A program made the position numbers and the translations under genes. The notes beneath the pieces are model-generated. The model ran no database searches, had not been told where the DNA came from, and worked only from the letters and a program-made list of their open reading frames with translations. From Dehalococcoidia bacterium (GTDB lineage: Bacteria > Chloroflexota > Dehalococcoidia > Lucifugimonadales > UBA3495): a stretch of 64,000 bases of DNA. The DNA lies in assembly GCA_030740155.1 (NCBI GenBank), contig JASLXV010000032.1, positions 87,361 to 151,360 of the forward strand. The letters run 5' to 3'. This document shows, piece by piece, positions 34,126 through 44,885 of the stretch (position 1 is its first letter; every line of letters begins with the position of its first letter).

Positions 34126-34443
34126 TCAGGGAGCCCAGGGCACCTCGATCTCCAGGAGGGGCGCGTACTGCTGGCCCCCGAAGATGTCGCTGTCCTCCAG
34201 GTCTCCCGAGAACACCGGCCTGGGTATGCTGAACTTGATCGCCAGGGCGTTGTCACAGTTGAAGAAGAGGACCTCTTCCTCCGGCTGCCGGTACATCCGG
34301 GCGACCAGCCCCTTGTTCAGCACCCCCGAGTCCCGGACCCGGGTGTAAACCTCCGGGTCATCGAACATGATGTCAAAGGTCAGCACGAAGGGGCCGGCAT
34401 TCTTGCTGCGCACCAGCTTGGTCACTTCCCAGAGCTTGGGCAT
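34126..34443 (-). CDS. DUF4387-like small protein
   Basis: RSKNAGPF.LTFDI.F and D.FGGQQ..PLL motifs. Confidence 0.8.
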   Translation of the reverse strand: MPKLWEVTKLVRSKNAGPFVLTFDIMFDDPEVYTRVRDSGVLNKGLVARMYRQPEEEVLFFNCDNALAIKFSIPRPVFSGDLEDSDIFGGQQYAPLLEIEVPWAP

Positions 34444-34511
34444 AATCGAAACCTCCGATTACTGATCCCTGCGTGAATTGCTAAACATTGCCAGTGGCCG
34501 GGCAGGACCGG

Positions 34512-35882
34512 CTAGACCCGGACCAACTCGGTCGAGAACATTTCGTAGGGCGTTTCCGGCTCCACCACGTGGTTCAAGTTGAAGCGGTGGACCGGGCCGC
34601 GGTTGAGCACGGCGGGGCTGTAGGGGTAGGCCAGGGCCGTGATCAGGCCGTGCCACTCGGGAACCGGGTTATGCACCGCCAGATGCTGGCAGCTGTCGGC
34701 GATGGAGGTGGCCAGGTCCTCGGTTGGAGCGGTTACCTCGATGAAGATGCACAGCTCGTGGGCCAAGTGGGTCGAGGGTTCCAGGGGCCCCATGGTGCCG
34801 TTGCGGCCGTACACCCGGAAGAACACGGAGTAGTCCCGGTCCATCTCCAGCCCGCCGAAGGCGTCCTGGATTCTGACGGCCAGCCGCTGCTTCAAGTTGT
34901 CGAGCCAGGAATCGACCTGCCGGATGATGATGGGGTCCCGGATGCTGCCGATAACCACGCTCTGGTATCCCGCCAGCTCAACTCCCTCCAGTTTCACCGT
35001 GTAGGTTTTCGCCGGCACCCATCCGCAGCCCGAGACCTTCACCGCCCGGCCGGAAACCGCCTCGTAACGGGCATCGGTGGTGTCGAGCATTCCAGAGGCT
35101 TCGTAGAGGTGAAAGGGGTCCGCGTTCTCGTACAGGGTGTGGGACGCCACGCTCTGCGGGGTGCACCAAAGCTCTTCACCGGGCGGTTCCACGATGAAGT
35201 GGTCCTTGCGGATGGTGGCGAACATGCAATCGGGGGCCCGGCGAATGGCGGCGCAGGCCGCGCCGCATTCCAGGGTTTTGGCGGCGTGCCACACCGGGCC
35301 TTCGGCGAAACCGCGGGCCATGGGAATGGCGGCGAAGAGGGAGGTATCGCTGGACCGGCCGGCCAGGACCACCTCGGCCCCCTCCTCCAGGATCTTGGCG
35401 ATGGGCTCGGTCCCCATCATCCCCACGATGTGGACACTGTTGTTGATCACCTCGTCGTTGATGGGCGGCGCCGGTTGGAGGGCGTGAATCTTTCCGTCGG
35501 CCAGTTTGCCTTTGAGGTATTCCCGGTCCTGCTCGGAACGAATGATCCCCAGCCGAAATCTCAGGTCATCCTCCCTGGCGATCTCGGTGATTACGTCCAA
35601 CGTCCACTGGAGGTTGAGGTCCCCGCCGCCGGAGCCGGCGGAGCCGATGATCAGCGGGATCGCGGCCCGGCGGGCGGCCAGCAGCATCAATCTTATGTCG
35701 CGCTTCACCGCGGATTTGGGGAAGTGGCACTTCCCGGTGGCCAGGGCGTCGGGGCCTCCGTCGGTGGAGCCGGCATCACAGGCGATGAAGTGAGGCTCCC
35801 ACTCCATGGCTCGGTGCAGGGACTTCTCCGCATAACCGGAGCCGAGCATACCAGTGGGCGCCAGGGCCCGAATCTCGTCCAC
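34512..35882 (-). CDS. Acyclic terpene utilisation AtuA/DUF1446 family protein
   Basis: DAGSTD.GP, GSAG.GG, AGRSSD, WH.AK.LECG and HTLYENADP motifs. Confidence 0.8.
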   Translation of the reverse strand: MDEIRALAPTGMLGSGYAEKSLHRAMEWEPHFIACDAGSTDGGPDALATGKCHFPKSAVKRDIRLMLLAARRAAIPLIIGSAGSGGGDLNLQWTLDVITEIAREDDLRFRLGIIRSEQDREYLKGKLADGKIHALQPAPPINDEVINNSVHIVGMMGTEPIAKILEEGAEVVLAGRSSDTSLFAAIPMARGFAEGPVWHAAKTLECGAACAAIRRAPDCMFATIRKDHFIVEPPGEELWCTPQSVASHTLYENADPFHLYEASGMLDTTDARYEAVSGRAVKVSGCGWVPAKTYTVKLEGVELAGYQSVVIGSIRDPIIIRQVDSWLDNLKQRLAVRIQDAFGGLEMDRDYSVFFRVYGRNGTMGPLEPSTHLAHELCIFIEVTAPTEDLATSIADSCQHLAVHNPVPEWHGLITALAYPYSPAVLNRGPVHRFNLNHVVEPETPYEMFSTELVRV

Positions 35883-36064: not shown

Positions 36065-37075
36065 TCAGCCGGGCCCCCAAACCTTTTCAAATAGCTTGAG
36101 CCAGTTCCCGCCCAGTACCTTGGTCACATCTTCCGTCCGGTACCCTCTTTTGAGCAGCGCTCCCGCGACGTTTGACAGCTTGTCCGGCGTCTCCATGCCC
36201 TGGGGATGGACCATGGGATCGGGGTAGGTAACCGGGCGCTCCCGGAACTTGGTCCCTTGTTGGGCGTACAACCAGCGGAAGAACGCCGCCGGTTGGTCCT
36301 GGGTATAGTCAGTTCCAATCCCCACGTGATCAATGCCAACCCTCTCGACCAGGTCGTCGATGGCGTCGACGTAGTCCTCAAGGGTAGACTCGAAGGTCTT
36401 GGGAAGGAAGGGCGGGAACGCGTTGGCGCCGATGACGCCTCCCCGCTCCGCGATCAGCTTCAGGGCGTCATCGGTCTTGTTGCGCACGTGCTTGTAGAAG
36501 CTCCGGGCGTTGGAATGGGTGCAGGACACGGGCTTTTCCGACCGCTCGGCGGCGTCGAGGGTAGTGCGGTCTCCCACGTGAGACAGGTCGATCAGGATGC
36601 CCAAGCGGTTCATTTCCTTGACGGCGTCCAACCCGAAATTGCTCAGGCCGTCGTCGGTGCGTTCCAGGCAACCGTTGCCCAGCAGGTTGCGCTCGTTGTA
36701 GGTAATCTGGATTATCCTCACGCCCAGGGCGTGAAACAGGGCAAGCCGGTTCAGGTCATTCCCGATGGGCGAGGTATTCTGCCACCCCAATATGACGCCG
36801 GTCTTGCCTTCCTTCTTCGCCCGGGTGATGTCCTCCACCGACTTCGCCTGGAGGAGAACATCGCCGTACTCTTCGAAACGGTGTATCCAGGCCGTGATGT
36901 TGTCCATCGTCTCCTGGAAGCCTTCCCAAACGGCGCAGGTGGCATTGATGGCGGTGACGGCGCCGGCGTGCAGGCTGCGGTAAACGGCTGGGCTGTCCCA
37001 TTGGCTCACGTTCAGCCCGTCGATGACGATCGCCTCGTCGTAGGTTCGCTGCGCGGATTCGGCTTTCTCCATCAC
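36065..37075 (-). CDS. Membrane dipeptidase (peptidase M19) family
   Basis: QITYN.RN, DLSH, THSN, RNK.D and GIDHVGIGTD motifs. Confidence 0.9.
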   Translation of the reverse strand: MMEKAESAQRTYDEAIVIDGLNVSQWDSPAVYRSLHAGAVTAINATCAVWEGFQETMDNITAWIHRFEEYGDVLLQAKSVEDITRAKKEGKTGVILGWQNTSPIGNDLNRLALFHALGVRIIQITYNERNLLGNGCLERTDDGLSNFGLDAVKEMNRLGILIDLSHVGDRTTLDAAERSEKPVSCTHSNARSFYKHVRNKTDDALKLIAERGGVIGANAFPPFLPKTFESTLEDYVDAIDDLVERVGIDHVGIGTDYTQDQPAAFFRWLYAQQGTKFRERPVTYPDPMVHPQGMETPDKLSNVAGALLKRGYRTEDVTKVLGGNWLKLFEKVWGPG

Positions 37076-38107: not shown

Positions 38108-38731
38108 TCACCGGGCCGCCGCGCCCCAATGGTCATACGAGCTGACCTCGGAGAGGGGCTTGCGCTGCGCCGGGCCGAAGGAGCCAAGGGGATAGCCCAG
38201 GGGAATGCAATAGACGACCTGGACCGTGCTGGGAATCCCGAACAGCCCGTGCACCCGCTCTTCCACCTGGGGGTGCAGCGTGGTGATGGTTCCCCCGATT
38301 CCCAGTGCCCGTGCCGCCAGGAGCAGGTTCTGGGCCGCCGGAATGGTGGAACCCGCGGGTCCCGGCCCTCGGCTGGTGGCGCACAGCAGGACGATGACCG
38401 GGGCTGCTCCGATCTCGTTGGAAAGCCTCATGGCCGATCTCTTCGAATTCTTGCCCGGCGGAATATCCTCGGGGCCGTTGATCCCCTCGTCCTTTCGCTT
38501 GGCCCACCACGCCTCGCGATAGAGGACGCCCAGCTGGGCCCGCAGGTCCGGGTCTCTCACCACCAGGAAATGCCACGGCTGGGTGTTGCTCCCGCTCGGG
38601 GCCCTGGTTGCCGCCTCAAGAATGTCCTGTAGGTCGGCATCGGAGATCGGGACGGCCCTCATGCGCCGGATCGCTCGTTGCGTGAATATGGCTTCCCCCA
38701 ACGGCATTGATAGGCGGCTCGCCGTGGTCAT
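38108..38731 (-). CDS. Nitroreductase family protein
   Basis: QRAIRR, APSGSNTQPWHF and QNLLLAARALGIG motifs. Confidence 0.92.
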   Translation of the reverse strand: MTTASRLSMPLGEAIFTQRAIRRMRAVPISDADLQDILEAATRAPSGSNTQPWHFLVVRDPDLRAQLGVLYREAWWAKRKDEGINGPEDIPPGKNSKRSAMRLSNEIGAAPVIVLLCATSRGPGPAGSTIPAAQNLLLAARALGIGGTITTLHPQVEERVHGLFGIPSTVQVVYCIPLGYPLGSFGPAQRKPLSEVSSYDHWGAAAR

Positions 38732-38993
38732 GTTCTGTCCTCCTAGCTTGGTGCGGGAATACTCCCGCTATGGCTTCGGCCCAGCCGGGTCCGCCGGGTC
38801 CGGTCGATGCCCGTGACGCTCAAAGTGTAATTCGGCCCCCGCTCCCGGTCAACGGCGGCGGAAAGACCGGCCGGGTTGACGGGGCCGGCCCGTGGGAACA
38901 GCCCTTGACAGGGACAAATGAGGCGCTCTACCCTAGCTTAACCGGGCGGCGCCACGGACCGGGCCGGCCCGTAGGTTAGGTAGGAGGGCGACC

Positions 38994-39554
38994 ATGAAGG
39001 TGTTGCTGCCGAACACCACGTTCCTCAACGACATTACCAAGATGGCTCCCAGGCCTTCTTCGTTGAACGAGAAGGTTGTGGGATTTCTGGATGGGTGGGG
39101 TTGCCGCCGTGAGGACGGCACCTTCGGGATGTACCCGCTCATGGAGGAGATGCGCCAATTGCTGGAGGAGCGGTACGAGTTGGGGGGCCACATCTGGTTC
39201 CACAAACCGAACATCTCCAAGGTGGCGCCTCCGGAGCAGATGCAGGCCCTGATCGAACAGGCCGACGTGATAATCAACGGGCAGTGCGCTTGAGGCTCTT
39301 GCACTTCGGCGTCCGTGCGCGACGCCATCGATCTGGAGCAGCAAGGCAAGCCCACCGTCACCGTTACCCACGACAAGTTCGAGCGGGCCGCCCGGGCCCA
39401 TGCCAAGAGCTTGGGAATGCCGGACCTTAATCTCTTGATCGAACCGGCCCCCAAGGGGGGCAACATCTCCACCGATGTCAGGGACATCGCCGAGGCCAAC
39501 CTGGACCTGGTCATCCGGGCGTTGACATCGTCGGAAGAAAGCGAGATCCAGTAG
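38994..39554 (+). CDS. UGSC-motif selenoprotein, 186 aa
   Basis: ORFs 38994-39293 and 39315-39554 are in the same frame, joined by GQCA-TGA(39291-39293)-GSCTSASVRDA; SECIS-like hairpin follows. Confidence 0.88.
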
Positions 39555-39582
39555 ACTTGACTCTTCACCGGGACTTTCACTG

Positions 39583-40677
39583 ATGGCTGAGCGCTATTCG
39601 TCGCCCGCCGCGGACATCACCGACTACTGGGAGTTCTTCGAGCTGGCCCTGAGCCGGGGCTGGACCGACGGCCTGCCCGTCTGTCTTCCGACGGAGGACC
39701 GGGTCGGCGCCGCCATCGAGTACCTGGGCCGCGACCCCCAGGAATCCCTCGGCGTCATCGAGCCCCAAAAGGGGGTCGCCACCGTCGAGCAGGTGGCCAT
39801 CAACTGCGTAATGGCCGGGTGCACCCCCCAGATGGCGCCGGTGGTCATCACCGCCATCGAGGCCATGCTGGAGCCGGAGTTCAGCCTCCACGGCGTCCAA
39901 TCAACCACCAACCCTTGCGCCCCCCTGGTCATCGTCAACGGTCCCATTGCCCGCGACCTGGGATTCAACGTCCAAGAGGGGGCCTTCGGGGGCGGGTCCC
40001 ACGCCAACGCAGCCATCGGCCGGGCGGTTCGTCTGGTGCTGTGGAACATCGGCGGCGGCATTCCGGGGATCACGGACATGTGCACCCAAGGCAGCCCAGC
40101 CAAATTCGCATTCTGCGTGGCGGAGAACGAAGCGGCCAGCCCCTGGACACTGCTGCATGAAGAGCGGGCCGGCCTGGACCGGGACCAGAACGCGGTGACG
40201 GTCTTCGCCTGCCAGGCCCCGGACCCCGTGTTCGTGCCGGGCAACACGGACCGCATCCTGAAGCTGCTGGCCTACTCCCTGCCCACGGTGGGCATCAACA
40301 TGTTCCACACGGCGGGACAATACCTGATATCGTTCAGCGGCAAGGTGGCCCAGGAGTTGGACCGGGGCGGCTACTCCAAGGAAGCCCTGAAGGAGTGGCT
40401 CTGGAAGTACGCCGGGTACAACGTGGGGTGGCTGAAGCGCAGCGGGATATTGGAGGAGGGGGAGGGCCACATGTACTACTGGGGCCATGGCGTGGCGGAC
40501 CCGCCCAACCTGTCCAATCTCCCTGACGATGCGATCGTCCCCATGGTGGAGACGCCGCAGGACATCCACATCGCCGTGGTGGGAGGCGAGTCCCAGTGGT
40601 GGGCCGGCCTCTCCGCCGGGTGGGGGTCCTACGGCGGGTATGCCGTCACCAGGGTGATCGAGGTACCGGGCAACTAG
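39583..40677 (+). CDS. Uncharacterised partner of the UGSC protein (GWTDGLP family)
   Basis: GWTDGLPV..PT, A.N.VMAGC.P and NAAIGRA.RL...N.GG motifs; starts 28 nt after the UGSC gene. Confidence 0.8.
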   Translation: MAERYSSPAADITDYWEFFELALSRGWTDGLPVCLPTEDRVGAAIEYLGRDPQESLGVIEPQKGVATVEQVAINCVMAGCTPQMAPVVITAIEAMLEPEFSLHGVQSTTNPCAPLVIVNGPIARDLGFNVQEGAFGGGSHANAAIGRAVRLVLWNIGGGIPGITDMCTQGSPAKFAFCVAENEAASPWTLLHEERAGLDRDQNAVTVFACQAPDPVFVPGNTDRILKLLAYSLPTVGINMFHTAGQYLISFSGKVAQELDRGGYSKEALKEWLWKYAGYNVGWLKRSGILEEGEGHMYYWGHGVADPPNLSNLPDDAIVPMVETPQDIHIAVVGGESQWWAGLSAGWGSYGGYAVTRVIEVPGN

Positions 40678-43559: not shown

Positions 43560-44885
43560 ATGCCAAGAGTAGCACATACAGTTACGCGCCCCGGTAAGAA
43601 CTTGGGAGACCCCGAGACGATTATTCCGGTGGCGGAGGACCTGGTCACGGTGCCGGGCGTCCGCCAGCGCCCGGAAGAGGTGGACTGGTACACCGTCGAG
43701 TATCCCCTGGAAAGCCACAATGTGGAGAACCGTTCCTACCGCCAATGGGTGGACACTGTCACCGCGATCAGGGGCCTGCGCCGAGAGCACGAAACGCTGA
43801 ATAGGCCCTGGGTGACCGGCGCCAGGGCGTCGGGTGATCTGGCGCCTACGGCGACCCCGGTTCCCGAAAAGGACGTTACCCAGCAGATCAAGCAGAAGGC
43901 CCGGGAGGTGGGTTACCACGAGGTGGGGATGACGGCTTTCGACCTGCGTTACGTCTTCTCCAGCAAAAGGGACAAGGTTAATTACGACCTGCCCCACGCC
44001 ATCTGCCTGGTCATGGAGCAGCCCTACGAGGACACCCAGAGCGCTCCCAGCGGCCCCGCCGAGGCGGCGGCGCTCGCCACCTACCGTAAGGAAGGCGAGG
44101 CGGGCATCGAACTGGCGGCCTTCATCCGCTCCCTGGGCTATCGCGCCCAGGTCCACAGCCCCAACGACGCCATCTGCGCGAACATACCCATGCACGTGGC
44201 GGCGGGCCTCGGCCAGCAGGGGGCCAACGGACAGCTTCTCTCTCCGTACTTCGGGTCCCGAGCCAGGATCATGCTGATCGCCACCGACGCGCTAGTGACC
44301 TATGACGAGCCGGTGGACTACGGCATCCACGCCTTCTGCCAGGTATGCCAGGTGTGTGTGAACCGGTGCCCCGGCCGGGCCCTGCAGAAGGAGAAGGTCT
44401 GGTGGCGAGGCGTGGAGAAGAACAAGCTGATTGCCAAGCGATGCCGGCCGGTAATGGGCCGCTACGCCGCCTGCGGCATCTGCCAGAAAGTGTGCCCCAT
44501 TCAGAAGTACGGCATGAAAGAGGTGATGGAGCACTACGTCGAGACTGGAGAAGTCAAGGGCAAAGGCACCGACGAGTTGGAAGGCTACACCCTCCCCGAT
44601 ATGGGTTTCTTCGCCTCCGGTGAGCTGCCCCGATTCGACCCCGAGTTCTTCCAAATCCCGGAGGGTCGCCTGGAAGAGTGGGTCGTTAAACAGCTCAAGG
44701 AAAAGTTGGCCGAGGGCGTACAGGATGACACAAAGTTGGCGGAAGAGTACGGCAAGCACCTGGTGAGGGCGGTCCGACGCCCCGCCGACTTCATGGAAGA
44801 ACTCTACTTTACGCCGGAAGTGACCGAGGCCTTGCCGTCCCGGGAGTTCTTCGAGGACGAGCCCGAGTTCGAGGAAGACCTGTAA
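43560..44885 (+). CDS. Reductive dehalogenase/QueG-like cobalamin and 2x[4Fe-4S] protein, cytoplasmic
   Basis: LA.FIRSLGY.A, AGLG..G.NG.L.SP.FGSR.R, FCQVCQVCVNRCP and C...CGICQKVCP; no Tat signal. Confidence 0.8.
   Translation: MPRVAHTVTRPGKNLGDPETIIPVAEDLVTVPGVRQRPEEVDWYTVEYPLESHNVENRSYRQWVDTVTAIRGLRREHETLNRPWVTGARASGDLAPTATPVPEKDVTQQIKQKAREVGYHEVGMTAFDLRYVFSSKRDKVNYDLPHAICLVMEQPYEDTQSAPSGPAEAAALATYRKEGEAGIELAAFIRSLGYRAQVHSPNDAICANIPMHVAAGLGQQGANGQLLSPYFGSRARIMLIATDALVTYDEPVDYGIHAFCQVCQVCVNRCPGRALQKEKVWWRGVEKNKLIAKRCRPVMGRYAACGICQKVCPIQKYGMKEVMEHYVETGEVKGKGTDELEGYTLPDMGFFASGELPRFDPEFFQIPEGRLEEWVVKQLKEKLAEGVQDDTKLAEEYGKHLVRAVRRPADFMEELYFTPEVTEALPSREFFEDEPEFEEDL

Follow-up and report, generated by a model that had tools for sequence, protein, structure and literature searches.

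The UGSC family of predicted selenoproteins was linked to a second domain, designated Unknown_1, through the gene fusion that was put in print by Zhang and Gladyshev in 2008, and a thioredoxin (Trx)-like fold and a redox role were assumed for UGSC in the same paper (PMC2398784, Fig. S1A). A 2026 review still counts the family as uncharacterised (PMC13188914), and our literature search, in which subscription papers were mostly outside scope, turned up no function for it. Of the enzymes that cleave substrates reductively with selenocysteine (Sec), proline reductase uses the Sec of PrdB to attack a substrate carbon held by its partner PrdA (PMC11229817). GrdB-type paralogs have been proposed to serve several substrates, including fluoroacetate, whose C-F bond would be cleaved with a non-pyruvoyl partner (PMC10838667). 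Papers are cited here by their PMC numbers. In this study, a UGSC gene and the gene downstream of it, referred to as the partner, were analysed in a 64,000-nt stretch (the window) of contig JASLXV010000032.1 from a Dehalococcoidia bacterium (assembly GCA_030740155.1). The two genes very probably encode the two subunits of one selenoenzyme. This had been proposed from the DNA letters alone (the sequence-only reading) and is supported by gene linkage, natural fusions and complex prediction.

The partner, a 364-residue GWTDGLP-type protein encoded 28 nt downstream of the UGSC stop codon as initially noticed, matched zero families of Pfam or NCBIfam. It corresponds to the Unknown_1 domain of the 2008 fusion, and the link between UGSC and the partner was thus already published in fused form (PMC2398784). 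In the genome to which the window belongs, 28 UGSC genes scored above the cut-off and 33 partner genes or domains were identified. A partner was found within 1 kb of 27 of the 28 UGSC genes, 11 of the 28 were fused to a partner, and 27 of the 33 partners had a UGSC gene within 1 kb. Moreover, loci retrieved with the partner as query also held UGSC in 80 of 80 cases from GTDB and 73 of 80 from metagenomes (153/160), these loci being the best 80 of 340 and the best 80 of at least 595, respectively, with kin among them that are not independent. Similar to the 2008 fusion, the window genes combine a U-G-S-C motif, a SECIS-like hairpin (SECIS, selenocysteine insertion sequence) and the same partner domain with its AVNAVMAGC block. 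Different from the 2008 fusion, the window genes are separate, and the UGSC protein has an FLDGWG insertion with Cys37, a Cys at position -2 and an Ala at position -1 relative to Sec. The accessible portion of the 2008 paper describes fusions only, and near-constant linkage, binding or mass paralogy were not found in it (PMC2398784).

The residues Asp29, Cys80, Thr/Ser108, Asn142, Arg147, Glu181 and Trp188 of the partner were nearly invariant among 85 diverse rows, of which all 85 had Thr or Ser at position 108; Cys80 was 93% conserved. The N-terminal half is conserved and the C-terminal half variable, with mean top-residue frequencies of 0.60 and 0.34, respectively, in 152 rows from the UGSC-rich genome G073 described below. 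The closest partner noted, at locus L029 of an uncultured Dehalococcoidia, was 90% identical to that of the window. Several copies in the window's own genome differ in arrangement. For instance, an 84%-identical partner copy (C38:10402-11493; L015:2397-3494) has no UGSC gene within 6.8 kb and no upstream remnant of one, has a luciferase-like gene and two MmgE/PrpD genes in its vicinity, and may borrow the UGSC subunit of the window. Four stand-alone partners and one stand-alone UGSC gene occur beside a fused copy in C62:31242-39469 (L021), which suggests that one Sec subunit serves several partners there. Two fused UGSC-partner genes (C61:8892-9909 and C20:48944-50092) seem to be broken or shortened, the former because of a frame change, the latter because TAG occurs upstream and the partner match is short.

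Association of the two proteins was assessed with P0101, a natural Cys-containing UGSC-partner fusion of the same subfamily. The two halves of this homologous pair were predicted to bind with a complex score of 0.67, the best of three controls scoring 0.00; this score was attained for 116 of 157 solved complexes and for 2 of 215 mismatched pairs. The runs agreed in at least 88% of contacts, and the pLDDT (predicted local distance difference test) of the partner was at least 81. The predicted interface includes Cys104, the equivalent of Sec, and residues 296 and 298-304 of the partner part, a loop that corresponds to residues 101-109 of the window partner. In the same model, UGSC uses its N-terminal arm to contact the GWTDGLP and AMAG region of the partner. 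A similar solved complex did not turn up in the PDB sequence searches or the partner fold searches.

The UGSC open reading frame (ORF) starts with ATG at 38994, contains an in-frame TGA as codon 100 and ends with TAG at 39552-39554. Translated with the TGA read as Sec, it yields a protein of 186 residues that includes INGQCA-U-GSCTS. The two short ORFs that the sequence-only reading had joined across the TGA hold at their coordinates, and the read-through product matched PF24696 with 134.2 bits (cut-off 25) over model positions 2-171 of 172. Its score against NF041046 was 86.3 bits, below the equivalog cut-off of 125; that of P0101, 81.2, was likewise below it. All 28 UGSC paralogs above the Pfam cut-off in the same genome have an in-frame TGA, which directly precedes G-x-C in 27 and G-G-G in one. 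In addition, TGA occupies the Sec site in 86 of the 87 UGSC domains of the GTDB partner loci, and Cys takes its place in the natural homologs P0101, L095 and L144. The genome, 3.6 Mb in size with 93.7% completeness and 7.65% contamination, contains selA, selB, selD and the gene for tRNA-Sec, and selD itself has an in-frame TGA. Since one contig from a DNA run (X9) and two from RNA runs (X15 and X17) cross the TGA with zero differing letters, neither TGC nor TGG being read, a sequencing error is excluded. By comparison of sequences, the TGA was confirmed as a genuine Sec-type codon, and residue 100 is predicted to be Sec.

The hairpin downstream of the TGA (GGCGTC/CGTGCGC/GACGCC) starts after a spacer of 14 nt. 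Taken alone, it is within chance (z values of 0.57, -0.49 and 0.49), and an equally stable fold was reached in 5% of synonymous recodings. In the 28 paralogs, a family-wide stem in another register formed 143 of 168 pairs versus 99.6±5.9 under synonymous recoding, and the window gene fits this register at 3 of 6 pairs. In the register of the window hairpin, 7 genes of the subfamily formed 35 of 42 pairs versus 25.8±2.9 under synonymous recoding (P about 0.001, near-copy L029 excluded), with two-sided G-C/C-G/A-U swaps at third codon (wobble) positions. Because this register is kept above the expectation from synonymous recoding with two-sided wobble changes, the hairpin is likely a real, subfamily-specific SECIS. 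The SECIS-like hairpin of the sequence-only reading is supported. It is extremely improbable that the TGA is a true stop or an error in a split or decaying gene. The hairpin statistics, the half-fit to the family-wide register and the NF041046 score below cut-off agree with such a gene, but TGA at the same site in paralogs and GTDB domains, Cys at this position in natural homologs, the complete Sec machinery, the compensatory changes in the subfamily hairpin and the reading of TGA in independent runs all argue against it.

Among the relatives compared, GrdB/PrdB was the closest to UGSC by profile. The UGSC profile aligned with 7 GrdB/PrdB-like proteins of the same genome with probabilities of 92.8 and 91.7 (E values of 4e-7 and 8e-7), Sec being aligned on Sec in the Sec-bearing C-terminal segment. 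The hhalign controls gave 2.0 for the reversed profile, at most 0.5 for 15 column shuffles and 2.0 or less for unrelated templates. With the motif masked, the probability was 28 (E value of 6e-4) over the same 77 columns. UGSC was not listed against PF07355 at an E value of 0.1, and the own-genome search found 7 other loci. Similar to PrdA/PrdB and GrdB/GrdE, the UGSC system combines a small subunit that carries Sec with a larger partner, shares the homologous beta-alpha segment around Sec with its U-x-x-C, and has putatively substrate-specific paralog sets (PMC11229817, PMC10838667, PMC13188914). Different from them, UGSC lacks a PF07355 match, the window partner is unrelated by profile to PrdA/GrdE, and the PrdC, PrdH and GrdA families were not among the annotated neighbours of UGSC loci. 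GrdA was not found in any of the four other UGSC-rich genomes searched (96, 95, 62 and 93% complete), which fits a proline-reductase-like rather than a glycine-reductase route.

On C69, C17, C54, C79, C91, C59 and C11 (L195-L209), the own genome also contains 7 GrdB/PrdB-like Sec genes, 8 GrdE/PrdA-like (PF09338) matches, all of them outside the window locus, and one TGA-containing GrdA gene. This set is unusual for a bacterium whose sequence occurs in seawater metagenomes.

By analogy with these enzymes, and with the balance about level, the pair could be a proline-reductase-like two-subunit selenoenzyme for the reductive cleavage of a small organic molecule taken up by the cell. UGSC would dock with its N-terminal arm on the GWTDGLP/AMAGC region of the partner, and the Sec loop is predicted to face the Thr108-Thr109 loop, which would place the active site between the two subunits. 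The partner would bind and polarise the substrate, and its variable C-terminal half may set substrate specificity. Sec100 would attack a carbon that carries a leaving group, breaking a C-N, C-S, C-O or C-halogen bond; Cys103 would release the product by forming an Se-S bond, and this bond would be reduced again by a thioredoxin-type system. Besides linkage, fusions, predicted binding and the GrdB/PrdB homology, this reading draws support from the solute-binding and catabolic genes that recur at the 164 loci, namely TctC (34), SDR (15), acyl-CoA dehydrogenase (15), luciferase-like (12), CoA transferase III (9) and MmgE/PrpD (9). In 76 UGSC stretches of G073, about 100 ORFs cluster with a family-5 solute-binding protein and are interleaved with UGSC genes. 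The conserved N-terminal and variable C-terminal halves of the partner and the thioredoxin-reductase-like genes at 5 of the 164 loci point the same way. Somewhat less probably, UGSC and the partner would make up a third, so far unrecognised class of Sec-dependent enzyme for reductive cleavage, with a subunit of undescribed fold in place of the pyruvoyl subunit; in Dehalococcoidia it would have expanded into a catabolic toolkit for dissolved organic molecules.

An AlphaFold2 (AF2) model of UGSC with a pLDDT of 93 shows a repeating beta-alpha domain, in which Cys98 ends a strand and Sec100-Cys103 opens a helix. The best fold matches were generic flavodoxin/Rossmann-type proteins (Z 10.2, root-mean-square deviation (rmsd) 3.7, 129 residues aligned, many ties), and the top rows were receiver, TIR and SDR domains (Z 9-10, rmsd 2.6-3.7). 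Thioredoxin was absent from the rows listed, which does not exclude a thioredoxin fold. UGSC is predicted, from the model, to be flavodoxin-like and not thioredoxin-like as was assumed in 2008 (PMC2398784). This prediction bears on an unlikely alternative, in which the pair is a selenol oxidoreductase whose targets are heteroatoms (sulfoxide, N-oxide, peroxide or disulfide), much like Sec-MsrA or thioredoxin-like proteins, with the partner as a substrate-binding scaffold. It would agree with U-x-x-C opening a helix, with the published Trx-like and redox assumption, with the conservation of Cys80 in the partner, and with the thioredoxin-reductase-like genes with CxxC found at 5 of 164 loci. In L133 and in L191, a member of the subfamily, such a gene lies immediately upstream in the same orientation; its TIGR01292 score falls slightly short of the cut-off in both cases. 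The predicted fold and the profile relationship to GrdB/PrdB count against it, and the more than 100 diverged paralogs in a genome suit substrate diversity better than general redox upkeep.

An even less probable explanation is a racemase, isomerase or lyase without redox chemistry, in which Sec would serve transiently as a nucleophile or base towards small carboxylic acids. Among the neighbours are MmgE/PrpD, lactate-racemase-like, crotonase, MaoC dehydratase and glycyl-radical enzymes, and no electron donor is regularly linked. Cys103, however, was conserved in 95% of 109 full-length rows, as expected of a resolving residue, and the homologous motif of GrdB/PrdB is redox-active (PMC11229817, PMC13188914). 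No racemase family was among the fold rows listed.

Returning to reductive cleavage by a two-subunit selenoenzyme, several observations weigh against it. The complex was folded from the halves of P0101, which is about 50% identical in the partner part, and not from the window pair, and it was run on custom alignments in which rows of the N-terminal half were shifted by three columns beside the active site. The GrdB homology spans only 77-94 columns with a template of 7 rows. The partner was rejected as a relative of GrdE/PrdA, with no Pfam match to PF09338 and a profile probability of 0.5. Six of the 33 partner genes in the own genome are without UGSC within 1 kb. The neighbour counts given above are inflated by kinship. 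Thioredoxin reductase is near at only the few loci given above, and no thioredoxin fusion was found among the 14 extended partner ORFs (of 179). The subfamily of the window lacks the Asp at -1 and the His109 that are typical of the family (73 and 70%, respectively), so its chemistry may differ. Finally, the density of solute-binding-protein ORFs in G073 was counted in UGSC stretches only.

The sequence-only reading had also taken the Cys two residues before Sec as part of a three-ligand Cys/Sec site. As a feature of the family, this C-x-U-x-x-C site was rejected. Cys at -2 is rare (2 of 28 own-genome paralogs, 1 of 87 GTDB-locus domains and 7 of 156 domains in G073) and confined to one clade. 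The subfamily of the window gene is marked by an FLDGWG insertion of seven residues, and among the 52 of 55 close N-terminal halves that reach the Sec site, the residue at -2 was Cys in 22, Ala in 29 and Gly in one. On a tree of 51 rows, from which six fragments or near-copies were excluded and the last residues trimmed, Cys98 needs 2 changes and fits one clade with one loss. Cys37 occurred in 18 of 55 close homologs, always together with Cys98 (18/18), and two Cys98 proteins have His instead of Cys37. Because all of them belong to one clade, this co-occurrence is not independent covariation. From these comparisons, Cys98 and Cys37 appear to be clade-specific extras outside the core site of the family, and a clade-specific disulfide or metal site at Cys98/Cys37 is possible. 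The subfamily relatives P0121 and L190:759-1328 are without Sec and the resolving Cys and keep the equivalent of Cys98; the partner match of L190 contains an internal TGA.

The partner model had a pLDDT of 96.7, and three fold searches gave no clear match (best Z 4.1), which is not proof of a new fold. Similar to the alpha part of class I Fe-S fumarate hydratase (7xky and 5l2r), the partner showed a weak resemblance over its whole length (Z 4.0-4.1, rmsd 5.3-5.9, 182-197 residues aligned), with Z 4 being within background. Different from the fumarase, its sequence has no recognisable cluster-binding Cys pattern and no profile similarity. A relationship to class I fumarase was rejected, with no Pfam match to PF05681 and hhalign probabilities of 0.1-0.6 against 18 PF05681 proteins. 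No meaningful match came from the PDB sequence searches; the top one, thioredoxin reductase 4jnq (E value of 0.0013, 94 residues), had no support from the fold search. The nearest clusters in ESM Atlas were unnamed. These results bear on the least probable of the enzymatic alternatives, which takes up the three-ligand idea of the sequence-only reading: that Cys98, Sec100 and Cys103, perhaps with Cys37 or cysteines of the partner, bind a metal or Fe-S cluster in a hydro-lyase like class I fumarase. The fumarase alpha part was the top Foldseek row of the partner (E value of 3e-3) and tied for the top by VIA-align (Z 4.0, rmsd 5.3, 182 aligned), Cys37 occurs only with Cys98 or is replaced by His, and the Sec-less P0121 and L190 keep only the Cys98 equivalent. 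Such a site is opposed by Cys98 itself, which most of the family and 29 of 52 subfamily members lack, by the background level of Z 4, by a partner-fumarase profile probability under 1% and by partner Cys178, which is down to 97 of 152 in G073.

UGSC was found in all 24 genomes sampled from the same family as that of the window, with 2-24 matches each. Class-wide, 113 of 301 genomes had a UGSC match above the cut-off, a tally that includes the unpublished G283, on which no claim rests. UGSC matches numbered 46 in G075, 24 in G117, 18 in G247 and 17 in G091. The largest number was found in G073, a single metagenome-assembled genome (5.0 Mb, 96% complete, 7% contaminated, one selB) and the only one of its family and order in the collection. 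All 150 scored candidates, of 208, were above the cut-off. The 76 stretches of G073 analysed (L232-L307) contained 162 UGSC domains, 156 of them with TGA at the Sec site, followed by G-x-C in 155 and by G-T-U in one. Of these 156, 97 were fused to a partner; the matched stretch contained a second TGA in 13 but not in the other 143. Identities to the nearest paralog had a median of 70%, none reaching 95%, and SECIS pairs numbered 634 of 930 versus 447±12. Two contigs alone hold 22 and 19 UGSC genes. Several glycyl-radical (PFL-like) enzymes are among the UGSC arrays of L241, L243, L248 and L281, which points to an anaerobic lifestyle of that organism. The published maximum for a bacterial selenoproteome is 63 (BSepDB, PMC13326102), and the largest published selenoproteome of any organism is 96 (PMC7539508). 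The UGSC count of G073, with at least 156 genes that carry TGA at the Sec site, exceeds both of these maxima, which were those found in the literature search. The BSepDB top ten includes two Dehalococcoidia with 49 and 46 (PMC13326102).

Table 1. Features of the UGSC-partner locus (positions in the window)
Feature	Position	Strand	Basis
Shine-Dalgarno-like AGGAGG, 5' of UGSC start	38982..38987	+	sequence
UGSC-family predicted selenoprotein, 186 aa	38994..39554	+	PF24696 134 bits; AF2 pLDDT 93; fold searches
Cys37 in subfamily insertion, clade-limited	39102..39104	+	18/55 close homologs; tree
Cys98, -2 to Sec, end of predicted beta strand, clade-limited	39285..39287	+	paralogs; close homologs; model; tree
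In-frame TGA, predicted Sec100	39291..39293	+	paralogs; reads; natural Cys homologs P0101, L095, L144
Cys103 of U-x-x-C, first turn of predicted helix	39300..39302	+	95% conserved in 109 full-length rows; model
SECIS-like hairpin, 6-bp stem, 7-nt loop, subfamily-specific register	39308..39326	+	recoding tests
Partner protein, 364 aa (GWTDGLP/Unknown_1)	39583..40677	+	Pfam/NCBIfam scans; published fusion; fold searches
Partner loop residues 101-109, ending in Thr108-Thr109, in predicted interface	39883..39909	+	P0101 complex model; position 108 conservation
Divergent nitroreductase-family gene, neighbour only	38108..38731	-	PF00881; adjacency among 164 loci

The gap between the UGSC and partner genes is spanned by one contig from an RNA library (X16, 39473-39626), which is not proof of a single transcript. 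The three RNA runs had zero cover 3' of 40675, which carries no weight as evidence. A promoter/terminator scan gave one weak minus-strand site, and no terminator was found by it. The 14 DNA runs with at least 94% of the sequence words were marine or seawater metagenomes, 8 of which are possible sources of the DNA.

The divergently transcribed nitroreductase gene (Table 1) is present as had been noticed. It was rejected as a part of the system, because among the 164 loci it was adjacent only in the 90%-identical L029. L055 has one further nitroreductase at a distance of 5 kb, and the filtered ORFs of 25 own-genome and 76 G073 stretches contained none. The other window neighbours (a Zn dehydrogenase, a luciferase-like oxygenase, a reductive-dehalogenase-like protein and a dipeptidase) do not indicate a single substrate. 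Of these, the reductive-dehalogenase/QueG-like Fe-S protein (43560-44885, plus strand) scored 114 bits against TIGR02486, below the cut-off of 160, and its gene is directly 3' of that of the luciferase-like monooxygenase. In addition, an AtuA-like gene and a DUF4387 gene (34126-35882, minus strand) adjoin the membrane dipeptidase gene (36065-37075).

Our results show that the window contains a real selenoprotein gene of a known, uncharacterised family, which belongs to a variant subfamily and has an already published partner. They turn the family into a problem ready for the bench, with a defined partner, a predicted interface that includes the Sec position and a homologous enzyme of known mechanism. 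Moreover, P0101 offers a natural single-chain Cys version for which Sec recoding is unnecessary. What makes these findings valuable is that the mechanism can be tested and that the UGSC family has expanded on such a scale; the special Cys site of the sequence-only reading is a local feature. As gene callers cut at the TGA and the partner is without a family name, a large set of enzymes is invisible in the annotations of marine Dehalococcoidia. If the count in G073 holds, the ceiling of the bacterial selenoproteome would rise from 63 to over 140, and this one family alone would outnumber the largest bacterial selenoproteome in print more than twofold.

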